Shown here: piece after piece, positions 3,001 through 53,600 of the stretch
Numbering within the stretch: the stretch's first letter is position 1
Layout: each line of letters starts with the position of its first letter
NCBI GenBank assembly: GCA_965178125.1
Contig: OZ237737.1
Span: 868,001 to 932,000, forward strand
Source: Bilabrum cf. latius
Taxonomy: Eukaryota
DNA length: 64,000 bases
Reading direction: 5' to 3'
Program-made: the position numbers and the translations under genes
Notes under the pieces: generated by a model
The model's input: only the letters and a program-made list of their open reading frames with translations
What the model was told of the DNA's origin: nothing
Databases searched by the model: none

Positions 3001-4867
3001 CATCTCCCTTGCCGTGCCCGAGTGCATCAGCCCGAACGTCGGGTGGGAGCAGAAGTTCTACTTCACCATCGCATTCCCGCTGGCCGTTGGCGTCATGCTG
3101 TTCCTTGCTTTCGCCAGCTTCGCGCTGTACAAGTACCTGGTGCTGGGCCGCAGCGACAAGCACTCTACTTTCTCGCATGTGAACAAGCTGATCTCTGGCG
3201 GCATCATCGTGTGCTACTTCCTGTACCTGTTCGTGACTGCCACGCTGATGGAGGCGCTGAACTGCATCAAGGTGGACGACTCGGATCCGAACACGTACAT
3301 GCTGGTGGGTGACCTGGAGCCATGCTACGAGCCCGGGGGGCTGCACATGCGTGTGTTCCCTATCGCCATTGTGTTCATGCTGCTGTACACGTTCGGCTAC
3401 CCCGCCATCCTGGGCTACGTGCTGTGGAGCAACCGGGAGCGCATCATGGAGGACCAGCTGCTGCGCGCCAAGGGCCTGGGGTACGACCGCATCAGCAACC
3501 CCCGCGCGTACGATCTTCGCAGGTCGATCGAGCGGTCGTACTTCGCGTTCCGTCCCGAGTACGCCGCCGGCACGATGGGCTTCAACTCTTGGATCGTGGT
3601 GATCCTGGCCCGCAAGGCACTGATCGCCATCACTTCGCTTGTGTGGGCGAACAACTCGTCGCTGCAGCTGTCCGTGAGTCTGCTTGTGCTGCTGTGCGCG
3701 TACGCCATGCAGGTGTACCACCAGCCGTACATGGCCCCTGCCGACCGCGAGGAGACTCTGCGCCATACCATGATCCTGGCCCTGGAGGACGAGCACAGCA
3801 TCTGGGCCAAGCTGCAGAAGAACGTGAAGGAGGTGGAGAAGCGCCTGCAGAAGACCGGGCAGAAGACCGACTGGTCGCGCCCGAACCAGTCCGTGCGATA
3901 CTCGAACCCCGTGGCCCAGGCCATGGGCTCCGTGGCCGTGGGCATGTTCTCGTGGAACACGCTGGAGTCGGGCCTGCTGTTCTCTGCTCTGCTGATCAAC
4001 CTGTCCGGCATCTGCTTCAACGCGATCCAGACTCAGTGCGAGATCGAGAACAACTGCGACTTCTTCCAGCCTCAGGTGGACACTCTGCTTGGCCTGGTGC
4101 TGACGCTGATCTTCACGTCCATCTTCTACTTCATCTTCGTGCTGGTGACGGAGATCTCATACATGTACCAGGAGGAGATGGTGCGCCGCGGCAAGATGCG
4201 GCCGGACGAGCTTTAGACGCTGCCCGAGCAGATCATGGTGTGCTGCGGCTGCGCCGACGAGAACGCGCAGGCTCTGCTGGTGAAGCAGCGCAACATGAAG
4301 AACTCCAAGAAGGGCTCCTCCAAGCGCAAGCTCGTGGCCGATGCACTCGAGGCGCAGGAGGGCGAGCCCGCGGACGCCGACATGTCCGCCAACCCGATCT
4401 TCAAGCGCCTGGCCGAGAACGCCGAGAAGGACGCCGCCGCCAAGAAGGAGGACGCGGAAGACGGGCCCGTGATCGAGGAGATCCCCGACGCGGATGGGCG
4501 CGGCGTGACCGAGGCGGAGGCCCAGGAGATCCGGGAGCGCGCCCAGGTGGTGCTGCAGATGCGCAACCCGCCGAGCGGCGCATCGTGGGAGCAGATCCGC
4601 AGCAACTACGTGAACCTGTCCAAGCACATCGAGGAGCTGGCCCGTCAGATGCGCCGCGCAGGCGTGCAGGGACGGCGCGGATCGAGCTTGGAGACAGCCG
4701 CGGCAGGTGCTCGCCGCGGCCGCGCCGGAGGCAGGCGCGTCGGTGGCGGTGCTCGCGGTGGGGAGGGACGCAAGGCCTTTGGCCAGATGCAGACCACCTC
4801 CACCAGCGGGGCCACTGCTGACGGCGGCATGGTGAACCCCATGGCTGCCAAGAAGGGGGGCAAGTGA
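1..4867 (+). CDS. Giant IPT/TIG-cadherin 9-TM surface protein, copy 1 (5'-truncated by window edge; one in-frame TAG at 4214-4216)
   Basis: ORFs 2..4216 and 4235..4867 are in the same frame and separated only by TAG, where copy 2 has CAG (22576-22578). Ends TGA 4865-4867. Near-identical to 18363..23229 at a constant offset of 18362. Contains IPT-like GxNFG repeats, a Cys-rich stalk and nine hydrophobic segments. Confidence 0.93.
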
Positions 4868-5455
4868 GTTGAGTGCTTGTCCCGGTGCTGGCTGAGATCG
4901 ATTGGGCGCTTTGCGCTTGATCGTCGCAGCTGGGCATCAAAACCGAGGAGCGGCTAGCGTCATTGACGTTGAGCGGAGGTAGTACGACAGCGCTTGGTGA
5001 ATCAATTGCTTTATTGCTATCGGGCGTGTGTCCGATGCAGTGATCGCGATCGCCTAGAGTTGCCTGGAATCCTTTAGCTCGCGTCGGAGAATGACGCTGG
5101 CCGCCAGATGCATCCATTTTGTGTTCTGTTAGGACAGGTTTGTGGAATGCTTTGAATGTCTTGCTTGCATACTGGTACGATTTTTTGTCTTTCGAACACA
5201 TCGTGGATCGCACAAGCATTAATCCGCTACTGAAAACACTTTATCAGGGAAAAGCATAACGAGGAGCCAGAATAGCTGATTACTAGAATTTTTGTCTGGT
5301 TATATGTGGGTGTTTTGATTCAGTCGAATCCCGAGCCGTGGAGGCGCAGCCGCGGCTGCGAGGCCGGAACATAGTTGGGACAGCAGAGCAAGGCCGGGTC
5401 CGTTAGCACTAGACCGGTCTTTAACAAATACCACAGTACAAGGTATCATACTTTA

Positions 5456-8400
5456 ATGCAAATTCCTGAAACGCACGCAGCCTTCGCTGTCACATTTCTG
5501 CTGGTGGTGCTGTAGTCCAGTGACGTATTCGGTGCACCATCGATGGCATCCGCCGTGCTGAGCGGGAAACAGTCTGGTTCCATGCATGCTGTTGAGACTA
5601 TCATTTTGGGTGGCGGTCCAGCAGGCGTACAGTAGGCATTCTATATGCATGCGTCGTCGCGTTCCTATATGCTACTTGAAAAGCAACAGCACCTTGCATG
5701 GTTTTTCAGCCACTATCCAAAGTTTAGGAAGCTGATTAGCATAAACAAGAGATACACGACACGTGAGGAACCTGAATTTGAGCTTCGCCACGACTGGAAC
5801 TCGCTGCTGCAAGACTTACCAGTTGGCACTAACCGGCATGAGCGTAATCGTTCCGAGCCAGTGCTCAGCCAAACGTTCAGTTTTAGTGACGGTTAGAAGC
5901 GCTTGGAATCTCTTCTTCACGATGGAAGTATGGGCCAGCTAGAGGTTGGATCCGATCACTCAGCAGCCTTCGAAGCAGCAGGAGTCCCACTGCTTTGGAA
6001 TGGATCCTCAATCAATGGCCAAGCTGCGCCTCGTGTACTGATGAGACACATGAGCAAGGAGTTTTACCCTCACGCTGATGATATGGCACGATACATCTAG
6101 CTGTTTGCAGAGCGATACCGTCTGAATGTGGCCTACGGTGCCAGCGTTGAATCAGTCGCGAGCCTCCACGGGCAAGCAGCAACTGCGGCGCGAGACCAAG
6201 CACGCCTCGATTGGATGCCTCGGTTTGAGCTTCTCCTTGAGAACGGCTCGGCGGCATCCTTCCCCAATGACCCCGGTATCACGCCGACCATCCGGAGGTT
6301 CGTCTGTAGGCACCTGGTGGTCGCAACCGGACTGAGCGAAGGCCACCTGAGCCCCGCCCACTCGGGACTGGCCAAGCACGGCACCCGGTACGACGAGCTT
6401 AGCAGCAACCCTGACGAAGAATTCGAAGGGAAGCGCATTCTCATCGTTGGCCGCGGCAACGCAGCCTTCGAGGTGGCCGACAACGCCCTCCGTCGAGCGA
6501 GGCAGGTGCACGTGCTCGGCCGCAAGACAGGAAGGGTCAGGCTCGCGTGGGAAACGCACTACCCGGGGGATGTGAGGATGACTCACGCGGCGCTACTCGA
6601 GACGTACATGCTCAAGAGCCAGGACGGCATGCTGGAGGCCAGCAGCAGCAGCGGTGCAGTGCTGTGCAGGGACGATGCCACTGGGCTGCTCACTTTAGAC
6701 GAGAGGGGCTCGTGCGCCCATCATGACTCGCAGGGAGACCTGAAGCAGTACGACAAGGTTGTTCTGTGCTTGGGCTGGCGATTTCAAGAGGATCCTTTCA
6801 GGCGCGGTGGGATGAGGCTTGGGATGGGAGGGCAGGTCGGCTGGAAGCGGCGGCAGGTACTTGCCCGAGCGATGCGGAACGAGGGGAGGGGACCAGCCCT
6901 GCTTGATTCTGCCGCGAGCGATCCGCTCAACCTGCTGTCCCGGCGCCGTGGGTCTTTGGTAGGGTAGCAGCAATCAAACAGCGAGATGAGCGCAAGAGAC
7001 GGTAGCCATGAGGCTACAACCGGCGCCTCGGGTGTGCATGAGGACGACGATATGCATGGTACGGGCACCGAGCTTGACGATGATGCAAGCACTCACCACG
7101 CAGATGCACGTATTGCGTTCGACGGACGCGGCCTGGTCTGGCGCTCGCCACAGGGACGGCAAAAGTACCCCCCTATCGTGCCTCATGGCAAGTACCCTAC
7201 TATGGACGGTGTGTTCAGGAGCCCGAAATACGCTGGCCTCCGGTATGCTGGCACTCTGATGCACGCGGGAGACTGGAGGGTTGCAAGCGGTGGGTTTGTT
7301 CACGGGTTCAGGTATTTGATTCGGGCTCAGGACCGGGTCATGCAGGAGGAAGCAGAGCACTCGCCGCAGGCGTGGCCTCGCATGCGTCTGCAAGGGTTCG
7401 ACTCCATACTGTATGCAATTAAGCGAAGGCTGCTTGTGGGTTCTGGCCTGTATCAGATGTTTGGTCAGCTGCAAGATGTCGTGCTCCTTGACCTTGACAG
7501 CCAGCTGTGGGGCGGCCCAGCCAATGCATGGGACGGACCGCCCAAGGACGCAGAAGCGATCCTGCAGCTTCTCGCCGAGGGGCGCTATCCTGACAGTGAG
7601 GACGAATCCCTTAGCAGTGTTGGTCAGGTATGTCGCCCTGAGATCGCGAGCCAGCTGTTGCAACACTTGCGCGGCACTCTGAAGCCGTCACCTGCCTCAA
7701 TGGGTGGTTGGACGGACGATGTGGAGGAGGATGGGAAAAGTCGCAAGCCTGAGCCGGACAAGGCCTCTGTCTGGGACCCCAGCCATCACGACACTCCCGA
7801 ATATCTGGCAAGGATGCCAAGCGACTTGTAGCGCGCAGCTGGAGGGTTCTTGTTCGAGGAGGTGCCCGTGCGATAGCTGCACCTGCTCGCCAGGAGGTGG
7901 TCCTTCCAACTGCAGGCGTGCGCGAGAGCAGTCTCGTGCGGCAGTGCGGCGGGAGCTGAGGGCTAGGTGTCCTGCAAGCGGAGCGGCCCTTCTCCAGACG
8001 GGCATTCCGTGTACGCGTCCGTCTCACTCGAATACGGGAGTGGCGCGAAACGGTAGAGCGCAGCAGCCGATTAGTCGGACGTGTTCTCTCTGCACCGGGC
8101 CACATTTAGCCATGATGACGCTACTATGGGCCGTTTCCTGCACCCTGTAGTCCGCGTGTTTGTCTCAGGACACCACACGCACGGTTTCACAGGCGACTAC
8201 CATCGCAGCCCACATGGTGACGTGCTCCGTATGGCTCGAAGGCGCGCTGAAGGAGAGCTGTTTGGCATACGACACGACGACAGAGAGGACACCGCCTGGC
8301 AGCAGGGCGATCGCGATAAGCCAGCTGCGTCTACCAGCTTCCCGCCACCCGTTTCTGATGCTCCCTTGCTTGTGGCAGAGGTGCACGTGTCTGAGGATTT

Positions 8401-10186
8401 CAACGCGGAGTTCGTTCACATGGAGCCCTACGGCATGCAGATCGCGAGAGCGATACATGCAGGCGTGTCAACGCTGGTCAAGTCAGCAGCAGCCGCGAGG
8501 GTCGGAGAGATTGGCGCCGGGCTAGCTGCAGCCAAGATGGTGCAACATGTCCTGAACAATTAGCTGCGAAAGCAATTGCTGCCTCTTTTGGGCGGCGGTG
8601 TGGAGCTGACAGAAGGAGACACAGCCAGCACCGGAGCAGGCGTATTGGAGGGCACTACTAGCGGAAGGACGCCGTTGATGGATGCAGGTCCTCTCGGCAT
8701 TATGTCAGGGCTAGCGGCTGCAAGCGATGCAAGCCTGGTTCTTGCAGGTGCACTGCTTGATGGCTCTTCTCCTAGGCACCTCGAATCGTCAAGGGCAGCT
8801 GCCTACGACGCTTCGAGGTCGGTGGGAGCCGTGCTTCGAAGGTCCATGCAGCGCTTCGAGTGGTCCGTGAGGAGGCATTTACTGCCCGACCTGGCAAGGC
8901 GGCTTCCGGCTCATTTGCTGCCCCCTTCGCTGCCTGGCATCGATGATATCGCGCAGGACCACGCAAGCGGTGACGGGATGCCTGCACATGCAGGGGGGCA
9001 CTCCACGGGTGGTGACCCGCACGAGAACGGCCTGGAGGAAGCGAGAGAGGCGTTGTATGTAGCTGTGCAGCACGAAAAGGCAAAGGAAGAAGAAATTCGC
9101 GGAAGCAGTCCGAGTCGCCGTGGTAGAGGTGAATCGCATGACCACAACCAGTTGCGCTACCCTGATGATGACCGGTACGATGAGTATCCCGCCGACGCCC
9201 CTGCCACACTGGACCGCGAGCTGCATGATGTGGACCGCGTCTGGAGCCGCCCGCCCAACTGGACCCTCTCTGGCAGCCATAGCGACGGTGGTCCTGGCTT
9301 TGGCATGGGACGCGGGCGCACGCGATCGCAGCTTCATCGGCCGGAGCAGGTGCACGTGCCCTCAATGTCGCGGGACTGGCTCGCAGGGGAGTTGGCGGCC
9401 GACTGGCTCAGCTGCGCCCTGAGGCATAGCCTGGCGGCTGTTTTGTGGGCGGAGGTGGGAGTGCATCGCACGAACGTGTCGATCACGCCGGACCTCCGTT
9501 GGGCTGCCACAGGTGACGGCGGCAGCATCTCCCGCCCTGTGCAGGACCTTCTCCAGGGACTGTGGCCCTCAAGTGGGACGCAGCTGCATGTGTGGCTTAA
9601 TGAACCCTTGGACTACTCGTCGTTCAACCAGGGTGCGCGGGGGCTGGCGGCTCTGGAGGAGTCCATCCACTCGATGAGGCTCGGCCCCGCGGGCGAGCAT
9701 GAGGCTTTGGAGCAGCTGCTCGAGCTGATCCGTGCGGCGTCAGGGGTGCCCGTGGTCATAACTTCGCGGCATGCTTTGCATACGTGTCCGTAGTACCCCT
9801 TCAAGCCCCCTTCTGCAACGAGGGATGCGGAGCTTTCAGGCAACGGGCGGCCTGCGGATGTTAGCCGGTTTGCGGTCCGACTTGTTGACTTGTGGCAGCC
9901 TTGGCCTGCCAGTGGCACAGATGGAGCGTGTAGCAACATGGAAAGACGTACTGGGCGTGCGGCCACGGATGAATATATCGTGGAGGATGCGTCTTTGGCC
10001 CCCGCTCACGGCGTTGGACCCGACCACGGAGTACCGGACCATGGGGCTCCGGTGGTGAACCCAGCGGGCGCACACCATGGCGCACACCAAAGCGGCTGCG
10101 CAATTAGCCGAAATTTATTGCATGAGCGGGTATGGACAGGGCCCATTGAAGCAATGCGGCTTTTTCGTCAGCAAATCCGGAGCTGA
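5456..10186 (+). CDS. FOXRED2: FOXRED2-like FAD-dependent oxidoreductase with N-terminal hydrophobic leader and long C-terminal extension (1576 aa if TAG=Gln)
   Basis: One frame from ATG 5456 to TGA 10184-10186 with 12 in-frame TAG and no TAA/TGA. Motifs IILGGGPAG, YPKFRKLISINKRYT, LRHDWNSLL, ILIVGRGNAAFE, WETHYPGDVR, GGFVHGFRY, SGLYQMFG and FLHPV match FOXRED2/ERFAD motifs as I recall them. Confidence 0.88.
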
Positions 10187-10381
10187 AATAATATTGCGAC
10201 CAATTGTATCTTGATCCGATCCGTAAATTTTCAGCGCAAATCGGGCAAGAAACATTTCTCGGCCACCTTTGGTTGTCGTGAGCGCGGTTCTTCGCTGCGT
10301 TTTCGCTTCTTTGGGTAGTTTGTTTATAAACAGGTCAAGTACCTTGGCTTGATCCCCTTGAAAAGCTTCAGTTTCTGCTCA

Positions 10382-13300
10382 ATGCTGAGAATGACTGCTG
10401 GACTTGCGCTCGCCGCCACGCTAGTGGCGGCTGCGTTCGCTCAGCTTGTCCCTGACAAGGCTTTAGGAAGCAAAATGGTTGATTTTTGGGACAGTGAGGA
10501 CGTTAACGGCTTTCAACGCTCTGAAAATTGGGTATTTGCTGCGAGAATCGCGAGTTTTTGTTGCATCGGAACTTGAGTCTGCACACAAAGCGTACGCGCC
10601 GATTGCATCTCCACCCGCTTTCGCGACAAATTTCGCAGCGACGAAGTTCTCCAAGACTAGTACCCAGTATCCGTCCACTTGGAAGAGCTGGAGGGGGCGC
10701 ACTATGTCTTAGGTGAGTAAATTGCCCCGAATGAGATGCATCTCAGCGCTCCGCAACATCGCTTACGGCCATGGTGGTGCTTTCCTTGCCATTTGTGTCG
10801 CAGTCGAACTCCCGCAATCGCCCCCGCACCTACACGCGTCGTTTAAACTGCCAACCGTAAGTTATTTGTGCTGGGATAGCCGAAAGTCTTGCGTAATTTT
10901 GCCACAGGGCCTCAAGTGTACCAATGTTCTTGTGGACGTCACGGTCTGTTTTGACTTTTCACCGACGCATGAGACGAATGGTTTTATAATAATTTGAATC
11001 AATTATCAATTTTTATCTCGCTCGCAGGGGCATGTTTTTCGACTGGTCTGGCAACAAGTTCATGACCGCTACGAGCGACAACCAACTTGATCTCTACGGG
11101 TCTGGCACTCAAGTGAGAGTAGTCTCTTGAGCAGCTTAGCTCAATGAAAGCCTATATACATGTATAGCTCACATGGAATGTTTCCTGCCGGCTTACACTC
11201 GCAGGGGCACATCATCTATGTGGTCGGAAGCTCGTGGTACTCCACTACGCGAGGCACCATGCTGCGCAAGGGCCAGCCTGTTGGTGCTCGACGCACCTAC
11301 TGGGAGATGTTCCAGCAGCTCTCGACATCTAGCCAGCGTTTTGGCTTCGTGGCGTCCTCTGCCTACACAACTAATTCGCGTTACACGGGTGCCCAGACCC
11401 TGCCCAACTCCCCAAGCTCGGTACAGTACCATGTGTACATGGGCAGGATTTGGGTGCGCCAGTACACCGGCGGAGTGAGATGAGCTCAAGCACATCCCAG
11501 CGCTTTTTCCATTTTGTTGCTTTTTAACGCACTTGAAACTACTTGATGCCCGTCCGTCCTTCTCGCAGAGGCGGTACACGTACATTTACGCCGAGATCGA
11601 TTTCAGCACGTCCGGCCTCCAGTACGGTGGCGTTGACTACGCCGGAAGCTACTACTACTACATCTACCAGCCGTCAGCATCTACCACAGACCAAGCACGC
11701 ACTATCTCAAGCGGTAGCTCGTACCCTCTGCAGGTGGGCGCGTCCTACCGCGGGTTCGAGGGTCTCATGATGGAGTTCGGGATCATGAACTCGTCGTCCA
11801 GCACTGATGAGAACCGGCTGCGCTCGTACCTCGGCACCAAGTGGGGCACCGGAGGCTGCCCTCCTGCCAACTCGGTCGAGAATGGGCATGGTGTCATCGC
11901 TACTACTAGCTCGGACTACTACTGCCGAGTGCCATTCGAGAACAGGGACTGCTCTCAGGCGTGCGCGTCTGGCAAGGGAAAGCCCGTGGGTGGAGTGGCT
12001 ACCAAGACATGCCAAGACTCCCAGTGGACCTCCCACGACCTGATCTGCGAGAACACTTGCGAGATGACCGAGGGTCCCGCCTTCACTGCCGGCTGCTACC
12101 GCACCGTGGTGTCGGCCGACTTCAACGGCAATGACGTGCTAAATGGCCCAATGCGCACCTTCCGCCTGTTCCCTCGGACCAGTTCTGCCCTGACTGCCGC
12201 ATACATGTCTGCCTCTTCCGACGGCCGACTGAAGATGGACCCTAGGCAGTGCACTTACACCACCGTCTACTACGCCGAGGACAACCCAGCGTGGCTTGAC
12301 ACCGGCGACAGCCAGCAGACTGTGACCGTGGAGGCCACCATGCAGCTCGAATACGGCTACGGTGGCCTTGCATTCAAGATGACCGATGAGCGCACCATGA
12401 TGCGCGTGCAGTATACCTACTACGGGTCCACCTGGTGGTACCTTTACCTGATCATGCAGGTCGGTGGCAGGTACACGTATCTCGGCAGCATCTACTACTA
12501 CACTCGTGATAAGCCCCCGATCTACGTGCCCCAGCGCATTGCCGATGCTCGCTTCAATGGCTACCGCAACATCACATTCGAGCAGTTCTTCGACGACGCC
12601 AAGGAGCAGGCTCGCCTCGCTGGTCACGGCAACCGCCACGCTGAGTTCATCATCCGTGCCCGCGTGAAGGCCCAGAACGTCAAGGTGTGGCTGCTGCCCC
12701 TTGATGCCACCCACGGCATGGCCAAGGAGGGCGCCACCTCGGACACCCACGAGGTGCGCAACGACATCGACAGGTACTACGGATATGATGGGCAGTTCTC
12801 GCCGCTGTGGGGACCTCAGAATGGGCTTAGGAACAAGGATGGTGACGATACACCCGACAAGATCTTTACGGCCAACGAGGAAGAGACCCTGGACGACACG
12901 AAGCCTTTGTGGGAGTTCAACCGCAACGACATCCAGGCTGGTACTGCCGGCATGTACGTGTACGGCACTGCCTACTTCGACAACTATCGCGTCTCGACGT
13001 CATGCGGTGCCGGCAAGTCATGCCTGAATGTGCGAGGGTACAAGGGCAACGGGTGCACGTGGGGCTGCGCCGAGGGCTTCCTGCCCAAGAACGTGTCCGA
13101 GCAGAGCGCCATGTGCAACCATGAGGGCAACGGAGAGGTGGCCTGGTCGAGCCAGGGCGTTAACTGCAAGCTGATCCCGCCCACCTTTGACTCCAACCAC
13201 CCGCCGCTTGAGGTCCGCGAGGACGCCACCGCAGACACCCCGATCGGGCTGCCCATCGCTGATTCCGTGACTACCAATGCATCCGATGCTATCACGCTCA

Positions 13301-16300
13301 TCTACAACCTGACCGATGGCTACTAGGATGACAATGGCAACACGCTGTTTTACATCAGCGGCTGCAGCGGTCAGGTGTACCTGGCACGTGGACGCACCCT
13401 CGACTACGAGACTGACCCTGTCAAGTTCATCACGGTGCGTGCCACCCCCTTGCAGCAGCCCGAGCAGGGATCCGAGTTCCGCATCCCGGTGTACCTGATC
13501 GACGTGGACGAGCCCCCGCTGTTCATTGAGCAGATGAACTTCACCCAGGCGATCCGGACTGTGCCCGAGAACGCTGCCCCTGGGTCTGCCTTCCCCGACG
13601 CGAAGCTGACGGCTATTGACCCCGAGGGCAAGGACGAGGACACGGAGTACTCGATCTTCTCGATGGACCAGGACGCTGAGGTGGGTGGCCCCGATGGAGA
13701 GCCCCTGTTCACGATCGACCCTGATGACGGCACACTGCACGTGGGTCCTGCCGGCGGGCTGAGCTTCGAGCGCTTCAGCGAGTACAAGCTGCAAGTGCGG
13801 GCCACTTCGAAGGTGAATGCCGCTATCTTCTCCCAGATGGCTGTGACGATCCGCCTGGAGGACCGCAACGATGCCCCGATGTTCCCCGAGGACATCCAGG
13901 AGATCACGGCTCGCTTCTCGCAGCTGGCCGACATGGCCTGGATCGGCACCGACACGATCGCTGTGGAGGACGAGGACGTGAACTCGACTGTGTTCGTGCA
14001 GCTGCTGCAGAGCTCCACCGGAGTGGTGCATCGCGACCTTCCCGGGCCTGGCTCCGACATCACCCGCAAGAACTACGTGGGCATCGAGGGTGGAGAGCCT
14101 GGCAACGCCACCGCTGGTCGCTTCTACTGGACTGAGGCACCCAACGCGACCGCCGACATCAGTTGGACGGACCAGATCTACGATGGACAGTTCGTGCGCC
14201 TGGTGTACACCGTGAAGGTGAACGCCACTGACAACTACGGGGCCACGACGATCGGCGACGTGCGCATCATCCTGGTGTCCGACGAGAGCGGCGGCACTGA
14301 CAGGCCGCTGGTGGAGTCCGTGACTATGCCGACTGGCACCGCCTTGACCACGTCTGGTGGCGAGACCCTGCGTTTCGCCGGATCTCGCTTCTCGCGGGCC
14401 ACTGGCTTCCGTGTGGTGGGCACGAACGCGATCGGACGCAGGTACGAGACCACCAGCTGCACTGCGACCGATGACAACACCCTGGACTGCACGTCTCCCG
14501 AGGGCACTGGTTTGTGCAACTGGGTTGTGTACGCGATGGTGAATGGCGAGGAGATCCGCAGCTTTGCCATCGGGCGGATGGAGTTCACGTACCAGGCTCC
14601 CAACATCACAGCCGTGACCATGGACCAGGTGGCCATCGATGCAGGTGGGCTGAACACCAAGGGCGTGGGCTCCGGGTCTTCGCATGAGCTGAACAGCAAG
14701 TTCGTGATCACTGGCACTGACCTGGGCAGCGACCCGCAGGCTGTGATGGTGTACGTGGGGCGGGTGACCCCCTCCTCTAGCGAGTACCGGTTCGTGTCAA
14801 CATCAATCGAGAGTGCCGACCATGACTCTCTGCTTGTGGGTGCCCCTGAGGGCATCGGTGCTGAGCTGCACATCCGGGTATCTGTGGGCGGGCTCTTTGT
14901 CGATGCACCCGACAGGCAGACTGTGACGTACGCTCCTCCTCGCGTGATCAGCCTGCGCTCTGGTATCACGAGCTCGTACACGTACAACCACAACATGGAG
15001 CCGGAAGGGTGGTCGTGGGAGGCCGAGTACCAGACTAGGTACGACCAGGAGATCGCCCGTGGCGACACTCATGAGCAGGCACATGCTGATGCCACCAGCT
15101 ACGCTGACTCGAGGCGCATCTGGAACCGGTTCATCATCACCGGCGAGAACTTCGGTCCCATGCAGGTGCTTGGAGCTGAGACTAGGCCGCTCGTGTACTT
15201 CGGCCCCGACTGCTCCAGGCAGTTTGAGCTGCTGAGCTGCGAGCTGACCCAGGCGTCCACCCAGATCACGTGCGAGGGATACACGCGCGGTGCTGGCGCC
15301 CGACACGGCCTCTCTGTCACGATCACCGACAACACGAACGTGGTGCTTGCGCCTGACATCCTGCAGGACGAGCAGTGCAGCCACGAGGAGAGCACGCTGC
15401 CGTCGACCAACATCGTGTACCGGACCAGGTCGCTGTCGTACCGGCCGCCCCAGGTGTACCAGCTCATCAACCCGCCTCAGCAGGGCAACACTGCCGGTGG
15501 CGATGTGGTGCGCATCCGTGGCCGGTACTTCGGCAACCCCAGCTCCGACCTGCCCGTGACGGCGTACTACGGCCCTGACCCCGTGTACCGCTGGCCCAAC
15601 TACCCCGGCGACCAGCTGAAGGCGACTGCCGGTACTGAGTCCATCGAGGCGTCCACCTGTGTGGTGCGCAGCGATGACATCATTGACTGCCAGATGGCAG
15701 CTCTGCCTGAGTGGATGGACGCCAACGGCCCGCATGCATGGACCGTGGAGGTGGGTGGCCAGGTGGCTCTGTGGAGCCGTGGCTTCACCCGGTACGGTTT
15801 CCCCACTGTGACTGGGCTGACCGGCGAGGGTGCTGTGCGCGCCAACACCACGGGTAGCCAGAAGGTGGTGATCGATGGCCGCAACTTCGGTCCCGTGGTG
15901 CCCGACACGGTGAACTACATCGCGCAGGTGGCAGACCCGGGAGGCATGAACTCTACCTACGAGGGTCGCGTGAACGTGTCGCTGGCCCAGGGCCTGACCA
16001 TGGCCCCTGCGCCCGCTCTGGGTGATGGCTCTGGCCTGGTGGTGCTGGACCCCCGTCGCGACTGCGTGATGACACAGGCGCACTACCAGCTGGAGTGTAT
16101 GACCCTGCCTGGCGCTGGTCGCGCCCTTGAGTGGATCGTGGTGGTGAATGGCGAGCGGTCTCGTGTGCCCCAGGCATCGTACAAGGCCCCGACCGTGAAC
16201 GAGATCATGATGCCCGGCACACCCACGGACCGTCGTGTGGAGGACGCTGATTCGGCTGGTGGAACCTGGGTGCTGGTGACTGGTCAGAACTTGGGCCCCC

Positions 16301-23229: not shown

Positions 23230-23362
23230 GTTGAGTGCTTGTCCCGGTGCTGGCTGTGATCGATTAGGTGCTTTGCGCTTGATCGTCGCAGCTGTGCATC
23301 AAAACCGAGGAGCGGCTAGCGTCGTTGACGTTGAGCGGAGGTAGTACGACAGCGCTTGGTGA
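18363..23362 (+). repeat. Direct repeat of 1..5000 (3' part of copy 1 plus about 130 nt of 3' flank)
   Basis: Colinear at offset 18362 with scattered substitutions. Similarity continues past the TGA into the 3' flank and then decays. Confidence 0.95.
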
Positions 23363-23729
23363 ATGAAATGCCTCACTGTCTCTAACCCTGGTGGTCAGAG
23401 GCAGGCGGGCTTTCGCCTAGAGTTGCCAGGAATCTCATTGCCCGCGTCTGATTGCGACGCTAGCAAGCTCCACCCCATCGCATTGTGCTCGCTTGTGCTT
23501 GAGCCCTTGCTGTTTGCTTTCGTTTTTTGTGTGCCTTTCTGCAACCCATTAGGGATACACAGATCATTTGCTCATCACCACAGCAAGGCGCGTGCATCAT
23601 TACTGATTCCTGGACAATCCACACATGAGTTTGGTGACCGAACCGGGGCTCACTAAACGCACCTTACGTTTGGAACTATTGCTAAATCGGATCCATTGAG
23701 ATCCTAGCTTCGAAACACTATATCCGAGC

Positions 23730-26408: not shown

Positions 26409-26669
26409 AGCGTTGCTTCCTTGCTCGCCGCAGCAACCTGTGCTGCTTGCTCATGAATCTTCAGGCTGTTGCGACCGAATCGAAGTGAATGATGAAGACA
26501 CAAAGTGCGAAGAAGCGTGTTTGGGAACTTCCTCGAAATAATAAACTAGTTTCTGGGATTCTATTCAAGGTTACAACGCAAGAGTATGTCCTCAAGTACC
26601 ATGGACGGGCTGTCAACCAGCAGGAGCCGCTCCAAGCACAAACGATCGATACTAACTACTTCAACGTCT

Positions 26670-40137: not shown

Positions 40138-40196
40138 TAAATTTGTGAGAAACGTCATCAGTACCCGATGGATTATATGGTAAATTAAGTACACAA

Positions 40197-43100: not shown

Positions 43101-46100
43101 CGCATCTGAGCCTGCACCTCGCGATTCAGAAGCCAAATATATCTGCATCACTAGCAAATAGCAATCCGGAGAATGTCTGATCAACAACAGATGCCGTAAG
43201 ATTGGCAACAAGGTCGTTCGCTACGTTGTGTTCCGCTGTTGATTGATTCTCAGACGAATTATATCTGACCATGGTGCGGTACGCAAGGGTAAACGAGGTC
43301 TACACCCTTGCTGATAGCTCCGATGGTGTGCTGTTGCTGACAAGTTCATTGTCAGCACTGTCGTCACCAGAACGGTCGTCATCGGTTGGCATAATGGTAT
43401 CATCCGTTTGCAGAGCACGCCAAGAGGTTGGGGTGTCTCCACCGTCAGGTGTTGTGCCGTTATCGAACCTGGAGCCGTGCACCCAGGAGTCTCCAGCATC
43501 GTCCAAGAGAGATGGTTCTGACAGTGTATCGGTACCTTCAATATCGACACCATGGTCACCAGAATGCAGCACTACAGTGTCACTACCGTCCAATTGGTGG
43601 CCGTACGTCCATGCTAACGCCCACATGCCCCCGTCCCCGCCATAACCACCAAAGCCTACAGTGCCATCCTGCAAACCCCACATAACTTGGCCACCTAGTG
43701 ATTGAATGATGCCACCGCCCACCAAGTGTGCTAGCCTCTGGCGCATGCTTCGGAAGTCGCTCCCGTCCTAAGGCCCACTCAGGGAGGCTGGCGCGTCTCC
43801 ATAAACTGACAATCCAATGGTACCATTGAGATCAACCTGTAGCCAGTTCATGCCCTCAACCTACAGTGGGGCCAGTGGTAATGTCTCCCGCATGGCAGGG
43901 GGAGAAGAAGGAAGGCGGCTGGGAAAGTTGCTCGGAGATGGACTCGGGCTTGGTGATGGCGAGCTGCTGCCCGTGCTTGAGGCAGTTGGTGTCGAGGAGG
44001 GTGTCCCTAACGGAGTTGGCGCTGCAGTTGCCCAAGCAGTCCCGTTCATTCTGAGCCGTATCAACCTGCCGCCAATAGATGCGCCTCGTGCTGCTCCAAG
44101 CAGAAGCTCATTGGGGTTTACAGCTGCAGCGAGTGACCCCAGGGATCCTACAGTAGCGTCTGCATCAGCTCCAGCAGCAACAGAAACGCTCATTACTGTG
44201 CTGTACTCCGTTGCACCAAGGACAAAAGCGGCCTACGACACTGCCAGTGCTTGCAACCCCGCCAACTGGCCTCCCAACACTTCAAGCACATAAACAGTAG
44301 ACGATGCCGGTCTGAGCGTGCCCGACACGGTGCCACGTCTTTCGATTGCAACGTCTGCCATAGAGTCGTTCGTTGCCCCCTCCACCGGCGCATCCACCCG
44401 ATCTACTCGCGAAGCTCCGAGCACGGCAATTGTAGCGTGAACGCCAGTGGATCCATGCGATGCGCTCGGAGATAGCACTGCAACAGACGAACCGAACCTT
44501 CCCCCCGGAGGCAGTAACGAGTTCAGCTCCTGCCCAAGACTTGAATTCGCTGAGAATCCAAGAACTTCACTGCTGACAGCAGTTCCATCAGCAGCATTCA
44601 AATGGAGGAGAGCCACCGATCCGAGCGCCCCTTCGAGCGTCCAAGTCCCGCTGCTGTTCTGCGATGAGGCAGTTCCATCGCCGGGCTAACCAACGACCAG
44701 CCAGATGGCGCACGGGTCGCCTCCCTCCACAGGAAGATACGAGCTCCAGGCAAGGTGGTCTCCATGCCGGAGGGCTGCGGCTGCTTCATTGGATGCAACA
44801 CAGCTAGACGGACCCATACGACCGATGCTTGCCCCAAATCCAACCCCAGAAGCCATACTAGCTGGAGGATCAACACGAAGAAACTGAGCCACCGTCATGT
44901 TTCTCGACAGCATTGCGATCCCAAGCCATCCAGCGCTGGGCCCAGGAGCACCAACTACAACATCTGGGATTCCGTCTCCATTAAGATCGATTTCAGGCCC
45001 GCCGAGGACAGCTGCCCCGAAGTCAGAGGCTACTGATAGAGCAACTGCTAGCCCCCCACTGCGGGAGCCTACCGTGACAACCTTCCGGATGCTATTGGAA
45101 TGCATGCTCCCAAGTCTGACCAGGAAAACAGCACCTTCTGATGCCATGGCACCAGGAGCACCAATTACTGCATCTGCATGCCCGTCCCCGTCAATGTCCC
45201 CAGCGAACGAAACGCTAGCTCCGAAGCGAAGTGGACTCACAGCCACCTGATTGGCAACAGCCTCTCCCATCCCAGCAGCATTCTCATCGAGCACCGACCG
45301 TGCAGAGAAGGATACATTGCCATCCGAGCCAGACTTGGCCTCCAGTACAGCCACAACTCCAATTTCACTAGCATCGGGAAGTCCTATCAGCATGTCCGCC
45401 AATCGATCTCCGGGCAGCAGGCCTGGCCCCGACAGAATTGTCGTGGCATTCGTACCAGTAAGATATCTGAGCAGTGCAGAGCCACTAGAAAACTCAACTT
45501 CAACAGGCTGAACTCCTTCTAGCCGAACGCTTGCCACCCCCGGCGATGGCGATGGCGATGGCGATGGCGACATCGACGGCGAAGGCTTTACGGTGTTAGA
45601 AGCAGTCGAAGATGGCGTGGCAGAATTTGTTGACGTGGGAGTTGGTGTTGCAGTTGAGGTCGAAGTGGCGCTTGCTGTGGATGACGGAGACACCGAAGGC
45701 GAACGGCTCCCCGTAGCCGATGCTGTGGGGGACGGCGTAATCGAAGATGTAGTCGACGGAGTTGGTGTAGGAGTCGGGGACGCGCTCGGTATTGCGCCTC
45801 CGAGGTGCAGGAGCATCACAGCGCCTCCTCCATCTGCATTGATTATTCCTACAGCCAGATCAAGCCTACCATCCCCACCAACGTCAGGCAAGCTAGCAAG
45901 CGCGGAACCAAACCGATCGCCAGTGCTGAGAGTGCTTGCCAAGAAAGCGTGCTGGGACAAGACTGTCATGTGAGACTGCACCGAAACCTCTCCATCATTT
46001 CGATCCAGCAAGAGCAGATAGACCTCCCCACGAGCCGAAGCACTCAATACATCTCCCACAGCAAGATCTGTCCAGCCATTACCATCAATATCACCAACAG

Positions 46101-49100
46101 CAGCAACAGAATAGCCAAACTCGTCGGAGTCGGAGAACATGTTGGAAGCGAAGCTATTCAGTCCATCGTCCGTTATCAGAGTGGCTGAGCCAGGATTGAC
46201 GCTGCCGTTCCGAGTGAGACTAGCAACAATGATTCTATCGCCATTGTTCATGCCTATAACTAAGTCTACCGGAAACTCGCTGCCAACTGGTGGGGGTAGC
46301 ACGGCAAGATCAAGACCCAAGTTATGGAGGAAGGAGCCATCAAGACCGTACAGTCCGCACCCTACCGCCTATTCAAGTACAGAGTACGATCGTACCGTAT
46401 CATTCCCATTCATGAAAAGCACAAAAATTCCGCCTCCAAATAGAACAAGCCTGTGTAGCTGAGGAGCAGAGGCAATGATGTCATTGATACCATCTGAGTC
46501 AATGTCTCCGGCATCACCAACGACAGCCGTGCCAAACCAGCCATTCTTCTGCCACAAATCACTCGATAGCAGCGGAATGCTTCCATCAATGGATACCTAG
46601 TGCGAAATAGAGCCATTTTTTTGCAAACGAAGTACCCAAATCCGGCCACCTGAACTGAGACGGGGTTCCCCAACGATCAGCCTCGGCAAGGTAGGATCAT
46701 CTCCGAGTGGCTGGGAGGCCATGAAGCCCAAAGAATCTCCGAACTGCGCACCAGTTTGACCTTCATAATTAAATTGTGAGGAATCTGATTGTTTCAGCTG
46801 AACGATCTGCCTGACGGTGCCTTCAGGTCGCAAAAACACCACCGCGACGTCTCCTTCACGTGTGGCCGTGGCGGTATGGAGCCCCATTCCTATTGCAACA
46901 TCGTTCACCCCGTCTCCATCCAAATCTCCGATAGTCGTGATTGATACACCAAAATCAGAATTGGATCCAAGGACGTCGTTGGGAAATCCCCCGGTTCCAT
47001 TCGAGATTATCTAGAACTGTGTGACGTTACCAGCACCAAGCGGCGATGGAGTCACGCTTGGGGTGGTTGTGCTTGCAGTAGTCGATGGTGTAGCAGACAG
47101 GGAGGGCGTAGGACTTGGGCTTAAGGACGGCGGCAGCATCGACCCTCCCATGAATAGGACCAAGACCGACCCAGTTTGCTAGCCACCAGCAGAATTTGCG
47201 TTCGGACCTCCAACTACTAGATCATTACGCCCATCTAAGTCGAAATCTGCCGATGTCACGAAGCCAAACTCATCATTGTCGCCAAGCAACCCCCCCATGA
47301 CAAGGTGCTTGGAATCCAGCACGACGTGATCCAGCACCCAAGTGTCTGTTGCATTCGCCTACAGGAACAAGATGAAGATTGCGCCGGCCCAAGTCTGCTG
47401 CACACTGTCTCTTCGCGCACCAACTGCTAGATCTTCGTGACCATCACCGTTGGAATCACCAATACTCGACATGGACCTGCCAAAGCCGTCAGCGTAGACA
47501 CCGCGCGCCCCTGCTAGGACGTCACCAAAGCCAAGCATGGAGGTTGAGCCAGCAATCCGACCGTCTTGACCTATGTGCTATACTAGGATAGACTTGTTGC
47601 CCGTTGAGCCGACAGCAAGCCTTGCAGCAGACCGTACTGCTGAACTTGGAAATGCTGCGAGCCCTCCTCCCAACTTGAATCCGAATTGGAATGTCGCCCC
47701 CGATTCAGCGAACAAGCGAACGTGCTCACGCACGGTGTCGTTAGCGTTGAGGAATAGGATGAAAACCTCACCGCCATTGAACACGGGGTCGTCAACTCGG
47801 TTCGCCCCCACTGCCAAGTCATTGAGGCCATCAGAGTCAACGTCACCCAGCCCACCTTCGATGCCAATACCGAAAGCATCGCCAGCCTGCAGACCAAAGG
47901 TATCGGAGCTGCTTAGTACCTGGTGTTCGACCCTTCCGCTTGGTTCAAGCCGTAGAAGCCAGAATCGCCCCGTGTCATGGACACCGTCCTACATCCAAGG
48001 TGCACCTACAGCTAATCTCAACTTCTACGGCTCGACTCCATTCGGCTGCTTCAGCGACGACAGGCCAATTCCGAAGCCAGAATAGCTCTCATTTGGAGCT
48101 GTCCATCCACCCTAGGTTCCGCTAATCTTCTGGAATGCCTTCACGGTTCCATTGCGTCGCATAAACAGGATCCACACGGCTCCTTGCTACGTTGCACCAT
48201 CGCTGTCCTCATTCGCACCCACGGCCAGGTCCGGTACGCCATCATTATCCAGGTCTCCAAGTGACTCTACGTCCCAACCAAACTTTGTGTTGGGCAGAAG
48301 CGTTGGATATGCAGCCCCAGAGTTGTTAGCACCCAATTGCACAGCCCGTGCTACGCCACCGGCGGACGCGGGGCTGGGGCTGGAGCTTGGGCTTGGGCTG
48401 GAGCTTGGGCTGGGGCTAGGATAAAGCGCTTCCTGATTGACATGAATCGACATCATTACAAGGCTTCCTGCGTGAATAGCACCGCTAGGATCAGATAGAG
48501 GCATTCCTACTGCCACAAGTGCCTCGTCACCGGGAGCAGCCAGCTAGGATAATCGACGCAAAACAGTAATGGAGGCACCCAGCCGAACCTAGCCGCTGGC
48601 CACAGCACCAAGCGTGGCATTGTTAGTTGCCGCATCCAGTCGCACAGACCGGTACACGGTGCCATTTTCCGGGTGGAGGGTCAGGGTGTACACCGCCCCT
48701 GCCCGTACGCCGTCGACGATTGCCGCGTCGCTGCCAACGAGCACCTCGGGGCGGCCATCGCCGTCAATGTCGCCTAGGAAGCCAGCTGCGCTGCCAAACG
48801 ACTCATTCTGGCTGGATCCCTGGCTTTGCATGCCTCCCTGGCCTGATCCGACCATAAGGCTAGACACGACTCGAATGCCACCATGCAGTGCGCCCTGCGT
48901 GCCGTTGTGAGCTAGCCGAACCAGCACGAGGGCTCCCTGGCCGGGTTTGTGAATTGCCGTGGCCGGAGCCCCTACCAGCAACTCTGAAACGCATTCGGCT
49001 CCGAATTCGTGGCCGATACACGGCGACACCGCATTCATGCTGGCGCCGAAACGGAGGGGAGTGCCACCGAACCCAACTATCGGTAGACCGCCAGTGGAGA

Positions 49101-50101
49101 ACTGTCCTAACCAGCGGCTGCTCTTGATTGTCCGATTGGGGTGGAGGAGGCACACGAGTACTGCTCCAGTGCTGCTGCTTTCGGTATTGGCCCTGCCAGG
49201 AGCCCCCACGGCCAGGCCCTCCTCGCCGTCCGCGTCGAGATCATGGAGGGATGCCACTGAGGACCCGAATGCGTCCCCGTCCTGCAAATCAATGCCGACC
49301 AAACCGCCCTGATTGCTTGCCCATACATTGAAAGAGATCACCCTGATCGCAGCGGAAGCGTTAACCTGAAGCCAGAAGAGAGCGCCAGAGCGTGTTCCAG
49401 GCGCCGCATAGTACCCTGGAGCGCCAACTAGGAGGTACGGGCGTCCTCGGTTTAAGCCCATCATCGCAAGGCTTGCGCCAAACATGCTTTCTGTTCCAGG
49501 ATCACCTTCAAACCCATGGCTGTTCTGTTCAATCACCGAGAGTTCCTTAACTGTGCCGTTGCTGTGCAGCATGAGCACTGCAACTGCACCTGAGGACTAG
49601 TTTCGATGTGCTGCTCCGATAGCTATATCTTGCACTCCATCCATGTTAACATCACCCAATGAAGCTGAGGCAGAGCCGAACAGATCTCCTGAATTGAACA
49701 GTCCCAGTGGAATACCACCTTCACCATTCCCGATCTGCAAAGCTGCACTTACCTCTCCTACGGCAACCTGTGAAAGAACGAAGCATCCAACGAAAAATAT
49801 ACAAATTTGGCAGTTTCAAGCATTCGCTGGTTTGTGTCCAGGCCGACGGAATCGGCGATCGTGAATACTTCGGGAGAGCAGGTATGGCGACTAGTAGTCG
49901 GAATCGAGCTCCACCGAACTCTCGCAAACACCAACAAGAAATAGTAGAACCGTAGTGCAGCCCTGCCGACAGCGCATGCAAAGTATCTTCAACCCTAAGG
50001 TAGTAACTTCCGCAGTTGAGCACCCTCACTGCATTCGTCATACGGCATGCTTTCAGCAGAACTACGGCGGCTATCAAGATAAAAGCTCCACTGATATTCA
50101 T
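40197..50101 (-). CDS. FG-GAP (integrin-alpha-like beta-propeller) repeat type I membrane protein with Ser/Pro/Thr linkers and long disordered tail (~3200 aa); frame break near 43126-43210
   Basis: Exon 1 50101-50030 encodes a signal peptide (MNISGAFILIAAVVLLKAC), followed by intron 50029-49768 (GTGAGG..TTCACAG). Many FGxS..GDxDxDG..DLAVGAP repeats. TM segment LIIGIVIFVGATALCVGSVFGGLWYL. About 24 in-frame TAG; ends TGA 40199-40197. One change of frame is needed before the TM segment. Confidence 0.8.
45541..45790 (-). repeat. Low-complexity Ser/Pro/Thr coding linker including (GATGGC)4 microsatellite
   Basis: Encodes PSASPTPTPTPSTTSS...SPSPSPSPSPG. Similar linkers at about 43900-44010, 47041-47135 and 48371-48420. 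Confidence 0.85.
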
Positions 50102-50652
50102 ATTGATCGTCGAAGGCAGATCGCTAGACCGCATGACTGCGCAAGTCGAATGGTTGCCGATGCCAGTGCTTTTAATCTTCTTCTTCAAGTTCAACAACTT
50201 GAAGCGGTCGCAACAACTGCAAATCGATCGAGAGGATAAGACAGATACACGATGAGTCTTCAAATATTGTAAAACTGAGAGCATCAACTGTTTGTTCCGT
50301 TCAAGCACCAGCAATAAGCCGATACAGTGGAGGGGCCTTGCGCCAGCAAGCTGCAATCCGTAGGAAACCTAGGCTGCAACTGCTGCGATCCGCCACCAGC
50401 ACTCCCGGAAGAGGCAAACAAATAAGTGCACAAATAGCAATGAAAACGAAAATGAAGTAGGGGTCGACTTCGGCTCCCATTCGAGGGCTACAAGCTCCGA
50501 TTGCTTGGCGCTAGCCACACTAGGGCCGTCTCCGGATCTACTGATCAACAGAGGCAGCCAGTTGGCCATTTAACGCACCAATCCAACCATCTTCAAGCGC
50601 CCAGCGAATATACCTACTCATCGACCCAGGAAGAGAGTACCAGTGATGACAA

Positions 50653-53600
50653 TCACTGGCCCCCCTTCTTGGCAGCCATGGGGTTCACCATGCCGCCGTC
50701 AGCAGTGGCCCCGCTGGTGGAGGTGGTCTGCATCTGGCCAAAGGCCTTGCGTCCCTCCCCACCGCGAGCACCGCCACCGACGCGCCTGCCTCCGGCGCGG
50801 CCGCGGCGAGCACCTGCCGCGGCTGTCTCCAAGCTCGATCCGCGCCGTCCCTGCACGCCCGCGCGGCGCATCTGACGGGCCAGCTCCTCGATGTGCTTGG
50901 ACAGGTTCACGTAGTTGCTGCGGATCTGCTCCCACGATGCGCCGCTCGGCGGGTTGCGCATCTGCAGCACCACCTGGGCGCGCTCCCGGATCTCCTGGGC
51001 CTCCGCCTCGGTCACACCGCGCCCATCCGCATCCGGGATCTCCTCGATCACGGGCCCGTCCTCCGCGTCCTCCTTCTTGGCGGCGGCGTCCTTCTCGGCG
51101 TTCTCGGCCAGGCGCTTGAAGATCGGGTTGGCGGACATGTCGGCGTCCGCGGGCTCGCCCTCCTGCGCCTCGAGTGCATCGGCCACCAGCTTGCGCTTGG
51201 AGGAGCCCTTCTTGGAGTTCTTCATGTTGCGCTGCTTCACCAGCAGAGCCTGCGCGTTCTCGTCGGCGCAGCCGCAGCACACCATGATCTGCTCGGGCAG
51301 CGTCTAAAGCTCGTCCGGCCGCATCTTGCCGCGGCGCACCATCTCCTCCTGGTACATGTACGAGATCTCCGTCACCAGCACGAAGATGAAGTAGAAGATG
51401 GAAGTGAAGATCAGCGTCAGCACCAGGCCAAGCAGAGTGTCCACCTGAGGCTGGAAGAAGTCGCAGTTGTTCTCGATCTCGCACTGAGTCTGGATCGCGT
51501 TGAAGCAGATGCCGGACAGGTTGATCAACAGAGCAGAGAACAGCAGGCCCGACTCCAGCGTGTTCCACGAGAACATGCCCACGGCCACGGAGCCCATGGC
51601 CTGGGCCACGGGGTTCGAGTATCGTACGGACTGGTTCGGGCGCGACCAGTCGGTCTTCTGCCCGGTCTTCTGCAGGCGCTTCTCCACATCCTTCACGTTC
51701 TTCTGCAGCTTGGCCCAGATGCTGTGCTCGTCCTCCAGGGCCAGGATCATGGTACGGCGCAGAGTCTCCTCGCGGTCGGCGGGGGCCATGTACGGCTGGT
51801 GGTACACCTGCAGGGCGTACGCGCACAGCAGCACAAGCAGACTCACGGACAGCTGCAGCGACGAGTTGTTCGCCCACACCAGCGACGTGATGGCGATCAG
51901 TGCCTTGCGGGCCAGGATCACCACGATCCAAGAGTTGAAGCCCATCGTGCCGGCGGCGTACTCGGGACGGAACGCGAAGTACGACCGCTCGATCGACCTG
52001 CGAAGATCGTACGCGCGGGGGTTGCTGATGCGGTCGTACCCCAGGCCCTTGGCGCGCAGCAGCTGGTCCTCCATGATGCGCTCCCGGTTGCTCCACAGCA
52101 CGTAGCCCAGGATGGCGGGGAAGCCGAACGTGTAGAACAGCATGAACACAATGGCGATAGGGAACACACGCATGTGCAGCCCCCCGGGCTCGTAGCATGG
52201 CTCCAGGTCACCCACCAGCATGTACGTGTTCGGATCCGAGTCGTCCACCTTGATGCAGTTCAGCGCCTCCATCAGCGTGGCAGTCACGAACAGGTACAGG
52301 AAGTAGCACACGATGATGCCGCCAGAGATCAGCTTGTTCACATGCGAGAAAGTAGAGTGCTTGTCGCTGCGGCCCAGCACCAGGTACTTGTACAGCGCGA
52401 AACTGGCGAAAGCAAGGAACAGCATGACGCCAACGGCCAGCGGGAATGCGATGGTGAAGTAGAACTTCTGCTCCCACCCGACGTTCGGGCTGATGCACTC
52501 GGGCACGGCAAGGGAGATGTTCAGGTTGAACGCAGACATGTACGTCAGCAGGTCGTCCAGCACAGGCGGGTACTTGATGCGGGCGTTGGCGAACAGAGAC
52601 ACCACCTGGAACCAGTCCACACCGATCGATAGGATGGCGATGTTGATGTTGGTCGAGTTCAGCCACAGACCCATGCCACCGGCGCAGGCAGCAGCGATGA
52701 TGAACGCCACGATCACCACCCACGGGTTGTCGGGACACTTGGCGCACACACCAGCCTTCTTGTAGTAGCCCTCGGCGCACGCGGCGCACCTGAACGAAGG
52801 AGCCTTAGACTCGTAGCCCTCGGCGCACGTGTTGTCGCCCATGCAAGCCTCGGCGGGCACGCAAGGCACGACGCACACACCACGAGCCACCTCATCGCCG
52901 CGCTGCCCGCCAGTCACAGGGCATATGGACAGCTCATCAGGGGTCTTCAGGTCGTACCAGCCACGGCGAGACACCGGGTATGTGTGCGAGTCAGTCTCAG
53001 AGTCGTAGCCGGCGCACATGGCACCCACCATCTCGCCCTGACGGGTCACAGGGCACTGCAGGCACGTCTCGCCCACACCACCGAAGTACCCAAAGTCGCA
53101 GCCCACGATCAGCTTGTTCGAGCTCTCGGCCGACAGCTCGCCCTCCAGCGAGCCAACGCGCACGCTCACAGCCTTGGGACCGGCGGTCAGCAGGTCGGTG
53201 CGAAGCGCGGGGCAGCGGATGGCATCCTCCCACGCCTCGGGCTGCCCGCGGCCTCCCTGGCCCTTCTCCACACGGGCCACCACGTCGGAGCAGTTCACGT
53301 GCATCGCCAGCGTGGCGTTCTCGGTCACCTGCAGACGCCTGCCCTCGGCTGCCTCGCCCTCAGGCGCGCCGATGTCGAACTCAAGGTCGTCTTGAGTGTA
53401 CATGCTGGTCACGTTGATGGCCAGCTCCAGGTTCCAGCCGTCCTGCACGTATCGCACGTTCTGGAACGAGTCGTTCGCAGGCCTGCGCACAGACCGCTCG
53501 TCCTCGAAGCGGCCCAGATACCGTCCAAACACCACGATGTCCTCGGGCTCAGCAGCGGCTCCGATCTGGGCAGAGTTCGTGATATACATGTAGCCAGGAT

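Follow-up and report, generated by a model that had tools for sequence, protein, structure and literature searches.

The window analyzed here, a 64,000-nucleotide stretch of Bilabrum cf. latius contig OZ237737.1 (positions 868,001 to 932,000), holds eight long reading frames, ~58 kb in total, when TAG is read through as a sense codon. TGA closes a long frame of this kind at 4865, 10184, 23227, 26406, and 40135 on the forward strand and at 40197 and 50653 on the reverse strand. A preliminary description of the window had named these seven positions as gene ends, three of them from paralogs; all seven were confirmed, and the paralogs proved to be near-identical TIG-domain genes. Its further statement that every visible gene end is TGA held for the seven listed ends but passed over an eighth in-frame TGA, at 43126-43128 on the reverse strand. 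We argue below that this organism, by sequence evidence a bicosoecid, very probably uses genetic code table 15 in its nucleus, with UAG encoding glutamine (Gln) and UAA and UGA as stops. The features of the window are as follows.

2 to 4867, forward strand: 3′ part of paralog A of a giant TIG-domain protein with a multi-pass membrane topology; one in-frame TAG (CAG in paralog B); end TGA 4865-4867.
5456 to 10186, forward strand: flavin-dependent oxidoreductase-like gene; 12 in-frame TAG; end TGA 10184-10186.
11479 to 23229, forward strand: TIG-domain paralog B, last exon, 3,916 codons; one TAG; end TGA 23227-23229.
23730 to 26408, forward strand: right-handed beta-helix protein; seven TAG; end TGA 26406-26408.
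26968 to 40137, forward strand: Fn3/WD40 protein, 4,389 codons; 41 TAG; end TGA 40135-40137.
40138 to 40140, forward strand: TAA immediately 3′ of that TGA, as previously described; probably incidental, without genome-wide tandem-stop enrichment.
40197 to 42974, reverse strand: membrane anchor with a low-complexity tail, no Pfam family; six TAG; end TGA 40197-40199.
43126 to 49815, reverse strand: FG-GAP repeat protein; 18 TAG; frame closed by TGA 43126-43128.
50653 to 62346, reverse strand: TIG-domain paralog C, last exon; seven TAG, four of which are CAG or CAA in a paralog; end TGA 50653-50655.

Across the eight coding stretches (58,359 nt) we counted 93 TAG, 130 CAA, and 624 CAG codons and no TAA, the absence of in-frame TAA having been reported before. 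If TAA were to TAG as CAA is to CAG, 19 TAA codons would be expected, so that their absence does not arise by chance, but the count is partly circular because the frames were themselves delimited by TAA and TGA. Free use of CAA, also claimed earlier, was borne out for the window as a whole but not for the three TIG paralogs, in which CAA is scarce (15 CAA versus 371 CAG). Reading through TAA as well left every 3′ end unchanged and extended the 5′ end of two frames only, one of which then ran into a GTGAG...GCAG intron; the in-frame TAA upstream of the last exon of paralog C is intronic. Pfam matches were found in five of six window frames scanned (flavin oxidoreductase, TIG, beta-helix, Fn3/WD40, and FG-GAP). 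At the TGA closing the FG-GAP frame, the membrane-anchor frame that ends at 40197 starts just upstream in another phase; this TGA may be a true gene end separating two genes, a small intron, or a frameshift or assembly indel leading into the 40197 frame. With its GC content of ~60% and no gene ending in TAA, the window alone would also suit an ordinary code in which UAA and UAG (UAR) both encode Gln (table 6) and TAA is merely avoided in a GC-rich genome, a reading to which the genome-wide evidence leaves negligible probability.

To assign UAG, we took 18 C-terminal loci of dynein heavy chains with ~10 kb of upstream sequence each and aligned them to a profile of 41 of 120 homologs. The 55,203 aligned codons included 202 TAG, no TAA, and a single TGA, which sits at a GTGAGT intron donor. 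The summed log-likelihood of TAG decoding was best for Gln (−61, versus −218 for glutamate [Glu]), and CAA and CAG behaved likewise. TAG accounted for 202 of the 2,678 dynein Gln codons (7.5%) beside 308 CAA; under table 6, those 308 CAA would predict ~29 TAA alongside the 202 TAG, whereas none was seen. TAG occupied 29 of 745 Gln-conserved positions, 10 of 1,442 Glu-conserved positions, and 0 of 930 tyrosine (Tyr)-conserved positions. TAA, whose presence at conserved Gln columns had been proposed beforehand as the sign of an ordinary UAR code, was found at none of the 745, and TGA at none of 773 tryptophan (Trp)-conserved positions. That UAG specifies a different residue, or is ambiguous, is therefore extremely unlikely: Glu stands in 10 of the 59 conserved TAG columns, but Glu columns are equally common for CAA and CAG, and a Tyr reading by way of the Tyr-like tRNA described below is contradicted by the 0 of 930.

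TAG also appeared within other conserved genes. At eRF1 position 48, where this genome has TAG, Gln is found in 82 of 85 homologs. Within Pfam matches, the 25 to Dynein_C contained 13 TAG and the 19 to the proteasome 6 TAG as their stops; in the 65 Ras matches we counted 48 TAG, 2 TGA, and 1 TAA, the TAA being intronic. In a 470-kb sample, stop-type codons with two-sided coding signal at the main threshold numbered 59 TAG, 0 TAA, and 0 TGA. Among seven TAG columns in the window paralogs, four are CAG or CAA in another copy, one is TAG in both, and two are GAG or GAT. These TIG/cadherin-like giants (>3,900 amino acids; 2-4867, 11479-23229, and 50653-62346) are near-identical, with a multi-pass membrane C terminus and divergence only near the N terminus, and the family has at least one further copy ~39 kb downstream of the window (L106). 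Taken together, the dynein, eRF1, and paralog comparisons strongly suggest that UAG is Gln at in-frame positions throughout the nuclear genes.

To find where genes end, we used termini fixed by homology. Sixteen of the 18 dynein loci reach the conserved C terminus, with 13 TGA and 3 TAA ends. Cysteine prenylation motifs (CC, CXC, CaaX) must be C-terminal; among 20 small GTPase ends taken from the 65 matches, a CC, CXC, or CaaX-type motif abuts the stop in 18 (14 TGA, 4 TAA). The eRF1 terminus reads DDDDFI-TAA, in register with the Cafeteria C terminus, and a metagenomic relative whose eRF1 is 92% identical has TGA at the TAA spot and an in-frame TAG where the genome has CAG. These homology-fixed ends thus comprise 27 TGA, 8 TAA, and 0 TAG (n = 35). 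An extended set of 53 ends comprised 45 TGA and 8 TAA; its extra 18 are the first TAA or TGA behind a domain, so that TAG is excluded as an end by definition. These counts indicate that UGA is the main stop, at about 80 to 85% of ends, and that UAA is a working minority stop at roughly one gene end in six rather than nearly unused, a choice that the preliminary description had left undecided. Its expectation of termination at UGA and probably UAA, but not UAG, fits as well. The TAA behind terminal motifs in eight genes, and the TAA/TGA exchange at the eRF1 end between genome and metagenomic relative, both argue against table 6. Given 45 of 53 TGA ends genome-wide, five TGA ends in five independent genes have a probability of ~0.44; the all-TGA ends of the window are therefore a small-sample effect, true of the window and not of the genome. 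GC-richness would be sufficient reason for the UGA preference.

A context-dependent code, with UAG read as Gln internally but terminating close to the poly(A) tail, the arrangement of Condylostoma or Blastocrithidia, is very unlikely. Such a code could draw on the eRF1 GTS motif, in which T32 is kept, unlike in Iotanema, and on a statistical end test that is not clean for TAG; it is opposed by the absence of TAG, and so of the TAG-terminated genes that would have pointed to it, from all 35 homology-fixed ends. Over the final 30 codons of the 53 genes, TAG makes up 2 of 30 Gln codons, resembling the dynein rate (202/2,678), and in the window one TAG lies 11 codons before the TGA end at 40197. 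Across the dynein, GTPase, and 53-end sets, a small sample of ends, no codon was both internal and terminal. Tandem-stop enrichment, suggested earlier as a check, was not borne out: the first five codons after the 53 ends held 10 in-frame TAA or TGA, and the two remaining frames held 7 and 10.

Contigs of four sequencing runs were placed on the eRF1 region; two of the runs, one from each of two studies, are presumed to be RNA. The two presumed-RNA runs join across all three predicted eRF1 GT-AG introns (209, 92, and 256 nt). Across exons 3 and 4, which contain one TAG as well as the terminal TAA, their contigs show the letters unaltered, and the second eRF1 TAG, at the exon 2/3 junction, is also retained after splicing. 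Because the spliced contigs keep TAG and TAA, RNA editing and micro-introns are unlikely. At intron 3, one run shows a minor alternative acceptor (L257:5383-5531) that would shift the frame. More broadly, introns do occur in this genome, and a part of the in-frame stops within domain matches is intronic, as would be expected if TAG were an artefact of sequencing errors, pseudogenes, tiny introns, or editing. However, essential genes hold hundreds of TAG and almost no TAA or TGA, TAG is unchanged in the spliced contigs, a separate metagenomic organism shows in-frame TAG too, and a cognate tRNA(CUA) gene is present; the chance of an artefact is minimal.

Besides the circularity of the window count, several points weigh against assigning table 15. 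Two TGA stand within Ras matches. At the loosest threshold, the 470-kb sample gave 151 TAG, 1 TAA, and 10 TGA, the weak ones being candidates. With TAG at 0 of 35 homology-fixed ends, a rate of TAG termination up to ~8% is still compatible. A model-based count of gene ends in the 470 kb returned 14 to 33 TGA, 1 to 4 TAA, and 9 to 33 TAG among candidates; this test mixes terminal with near-terminal and repeat TAG and was used neither for nor against UAG termination. Finally, the evidence for UAG as Gln is sequence based.

The genome (G000) comprises 111 contigs and 48.6 Mb, with spliceosomal introns. Its best named match is Cafeteria roenbergensis, both for eRF1 (69%) and for an axonemal dynein (65%). 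In an eRF1 tree of 35 rows, built from 34 of 120 matches, it groups with Cafeteria and relatives (support 97/90), and in a dynein tree (25 rows, 550 residues) its sister group consists of Cafeteria and a single metagenome protein (0.99). Since these matches and trees point to Cafeteria, the organism is classed here as a Cafeteria-related bicosoecid stramenopile, a marine-type flagellate; the placement draws on two protein genes with sparse sampling of named taxa. The nuclear code of Cafeteria itself we take to be standard. An eRF1 labelled Symbiodinium sp. KB8 (P0008) falls beside the genome and Cafeteria and is probably a bicosoecid contaminant; in the protein collection, the eRF1 of the genome itself is present only as a C-terminal fragment (P0002). 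The metagenome scan recovered a close relative at 1 of 70 loci. A metagenomic species (L187:2-709), the second after the organism itself, has in-frame TAG at a Gln position, and P0001 may represent a third. Because that metagenomic species shows TAG at a Gln position, the UAG = Gln code predates a single species.

We compared eRF1 with 85 full-length homologs, human numbering being set from GTS = 31 to 33. In the N-domain motifs proposed earlier for inspection, T32 and S33 of GTS, NIKS, and Y125, C127, and F131 are kept, as are E55 and S70. Other residues are changed (G29A, N30D, I35V, S60V, L69Q, N129S, and K130H; also T99E and E107Q), residue 29 being G in 84 of 85 homologs and residue 35 I in 85 of 85. 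According to Blanchet et al. (PMC4381064), L69A raises read-through most at UAG, S33 and S70 serve UGA, N30A has no effect, and N129 is cited as a proposed contact of the third-position G. The eRF1 changes thus appear to fit loss of UAG with retention of UGA. As a cause of UAG blindness, however, L69Q and N129S are only candidates: both also occur in sister-clade eRF1s, including the P0008 clade, and the N domain is divergent as a whole. An eRF1 screen preprint (PMC12440015) yielded no match for the human-numbered positions. Autoregulation of eRF1 through its two TAG codons was considered and dropped, 2 of 16 Gln codons not being above the dynein 7.5%.

The preliminary description had held that such a code needs a CUA-anticodon tRNA-Gln. 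An Rfam tRNA search that scored 63 of 780 candidates gave 48 matches, among them one nuclear tRNA(CUA) gene with a canonical cloverleaf [G000:C23:907607-907679(-)], and two independent pattern scans, one spanning the anticodon through the T loop and the other the A box through the anticodon, both recovered it. Neither scan found the tRNA(UUA) that table 6 would lead one to expect; UUA-like matches did not fold, although non-canonical boxes could hide a gene. Two nuclear tRNA-Ile(GAU) genes (G000:C32:91173-91245 and C4:952092-952164) were present, as were Ala(AGC) and Thr(AGT); eukaryotic nuclear tRNA-Ile is usually AAU. Resembling tRNA-Met(CAU), several AT-rich copies that are near-identical to one another lie dispersed in the genome (L026, L069, L073, L080, L081, and L082), one adjoining a similar tRNA-Pro(UGG). 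A mitochondrial-type contig (G000:C111; L005, L020) carries a tRNA(UCA), which suggests mitochondrial UGA = Trp, as reported for Cafileria and Cafeteria (PMC6723347).

Compared with 25 other nuclear tRNAs, tRNA(CUA) is closest to tRNA-Tyr(GUA), sharing six of seven acceptor pairs and four of five anticodon stem pairs (10/12 together), versus three and three with Gln(CUG). The C1-G72 pair is found only in these two among the tRNAs compared. Over four stems (21 pairs) the scores are 14 for Tyr(GUA), 11 for Gln(CUG), and 10 for Gln(UUG), and tRNA(CUA) shares its D arm (4/4) and G73 with Gln(UUG). Origin from tRNA-Tyr(GUA) with an identity switch is preferred over origin from tRNA-Gln(CUG), at about an even chance on these stem comparisons; descent from a diverged Gln tRNA is somewhat less probable. 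Three points temper the Tyr origin: none of 292 unrelated tRNA pairs exceeds 8/12 across the acceptor stem plus the anticodon stem, but those stems were picked after looking; a four-stem score of 14 is matched by 6 of the 292; and tRNA-His, Leu, and Glu(UUC) were not recovered and so are absent from the comparison, the inventory being incomplete. C1-G72 and the Tyr-like stems would favor UAG as Tyr, whereas tRNA(CUA) has G73, not A73: PMC9976931 lists A73 and C1-G72 as eukaryotic Tyr determinants and G73/U35 as bacterial Gln determinants, its entry for eukaryotic Gln determinants being blank. In E. coli, tRNAs that carry a CUA anticodon but have another origin, variants of yeast tRNA-Tyr among them, can be charged with Gln, and the determinants for glutaminyl-tRNA synthetase (GlnRS) include G73 and U35 (PMC1483225). 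We infer Gln charging of tRNA(CUA). The GlnRS anticodon-domain motifs align with those of human GlnRS, with no obvious change seen.

These observations suggest a model. The tRNA(CUA) would be charged with Gln by the ordinary GlnRS and would pair with UAG only, since C34 does not read A; at UAA, no UUA-anticodon tRNA would compete. The remodelled eRF1 N domain (G29A, N30D, I35V, S60V, L69Q, N129S, and K130H) would have lost recognition of the third-position G but would still accept UGA and UAA. A more tentative element is that tRNA-Tyr(GUA) may have become tRNA(CUA) by G34C, with A73G and a D arm of Gln type changing its identity. The combined proposition, that this is the first stramenopile nuclear code change, with UAG read by a former tRNA-Tyr suppressor turned Gln and UAA at ~1/6 of ends, is slightly less probable than its negation. 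If it is true, Gln reassignment need not begin with a Gln tRNA.

A literature search found no nuclear code change in a stramenopile or bicosoecid, subscription journals and preprint supplements lying largely outside its coverage. Genetic code, UAG, and tRNA all go unmentioned in the main text of a preprint on the Halocafeteria genome, and the accessible text of the Cafileria paper covers only the mitochondrial code (PMC6723347). This bicosoecid is a new, apparently independent member of the rare UAG-only reassignments, previously reported from other groups of protists only. Such cases are informative about the reasons for the usual joint change of UAA and UAG, and this one adds a further eukaryotic branch, represented by a nearly complete genome. 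Annotation of this genome and of those related to it requires table 15. The preliminary description rightly took UAA and UAG to be split here, a split that has precedents in Iotanema spirale, Hartmannula sinica, and Trochilia petrani.

Iotanema spirale, a fornicate, has the same nuclear code, with UAG as Gln, UAA and UGA as stops, and no UAG end seen (Panek et al. 2017, PMC5304391; also PMC9161772). Its ends are 104 UAA and 15 UGA (of 119), versus 8 TAA and 45 TGA in the bicosoecid, so that stop preference is reversed relative to earlier table-15 cases, UGA over UAA. Its eRF1 carries T32G, whereas T32 is intact in the bicosoecid, a natural case of an eRF1 that keeps GTS and yet apparently ignores UAG, of relevance to amber suppression. 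For Iotanema, derivation of a tRNA(CUA) from tRNA-Gln(CUG) was predicted, and the tRNA was not sequenced; the bicosoecid supplies a candidate gene for the tRNA(CUA) predicted but not found in earlier UAG = Gln cases. The ciliates Hartmannula sinica and Trochilia petrani also use table 15, the suppressor tRNA being undetected in both (McGowan et al. 2024, PMC11687900). The same text gives UAA as ending 86.9 to 98.3% of genes in five reassigned ciliate species and argues that UAA dominance fixes UAA as stop.

In the rhizarian exLh and three TARA phyllopharyngean ciliates, as in the bicosoecid, UAG alone is reassigned, with a CUA tRNA in two ciliate assemblies, and L69 of eRF1 is changed in exLh (to Ala; L69Q here); they differ in that UAG is Leu, the tRNAs have tRNA-Leu ancestors, and UAA is dominant. 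A further case of a Gln-mischarged amber suppressor in E. coli is supF A73G. Such suppressors resemble the tRNA proposed here in that CUA tRNAs of other origin take Gln, but they are laboratory mutants served by a bacterial enzyme, whereas the bicosoecid tRNA(CUA) is natural and eukaryotic. Table 6, as used by ciliates, hexamitids, and ulvophytes, shares UAG = Gln, a tRNA(CUA), and UGA as the main stop; there UAA is Gln, whereas in the bicosoecid it is a stop, with no tRNA(UUA) found. If the former tRNA-Tyr suppressor is real, this bicosoecid would belong to an extant lineage intermediate between the standard code and UAR = Gln, and it would lack the lock on UAA by which other UAG-only codes were argued to be frozen.

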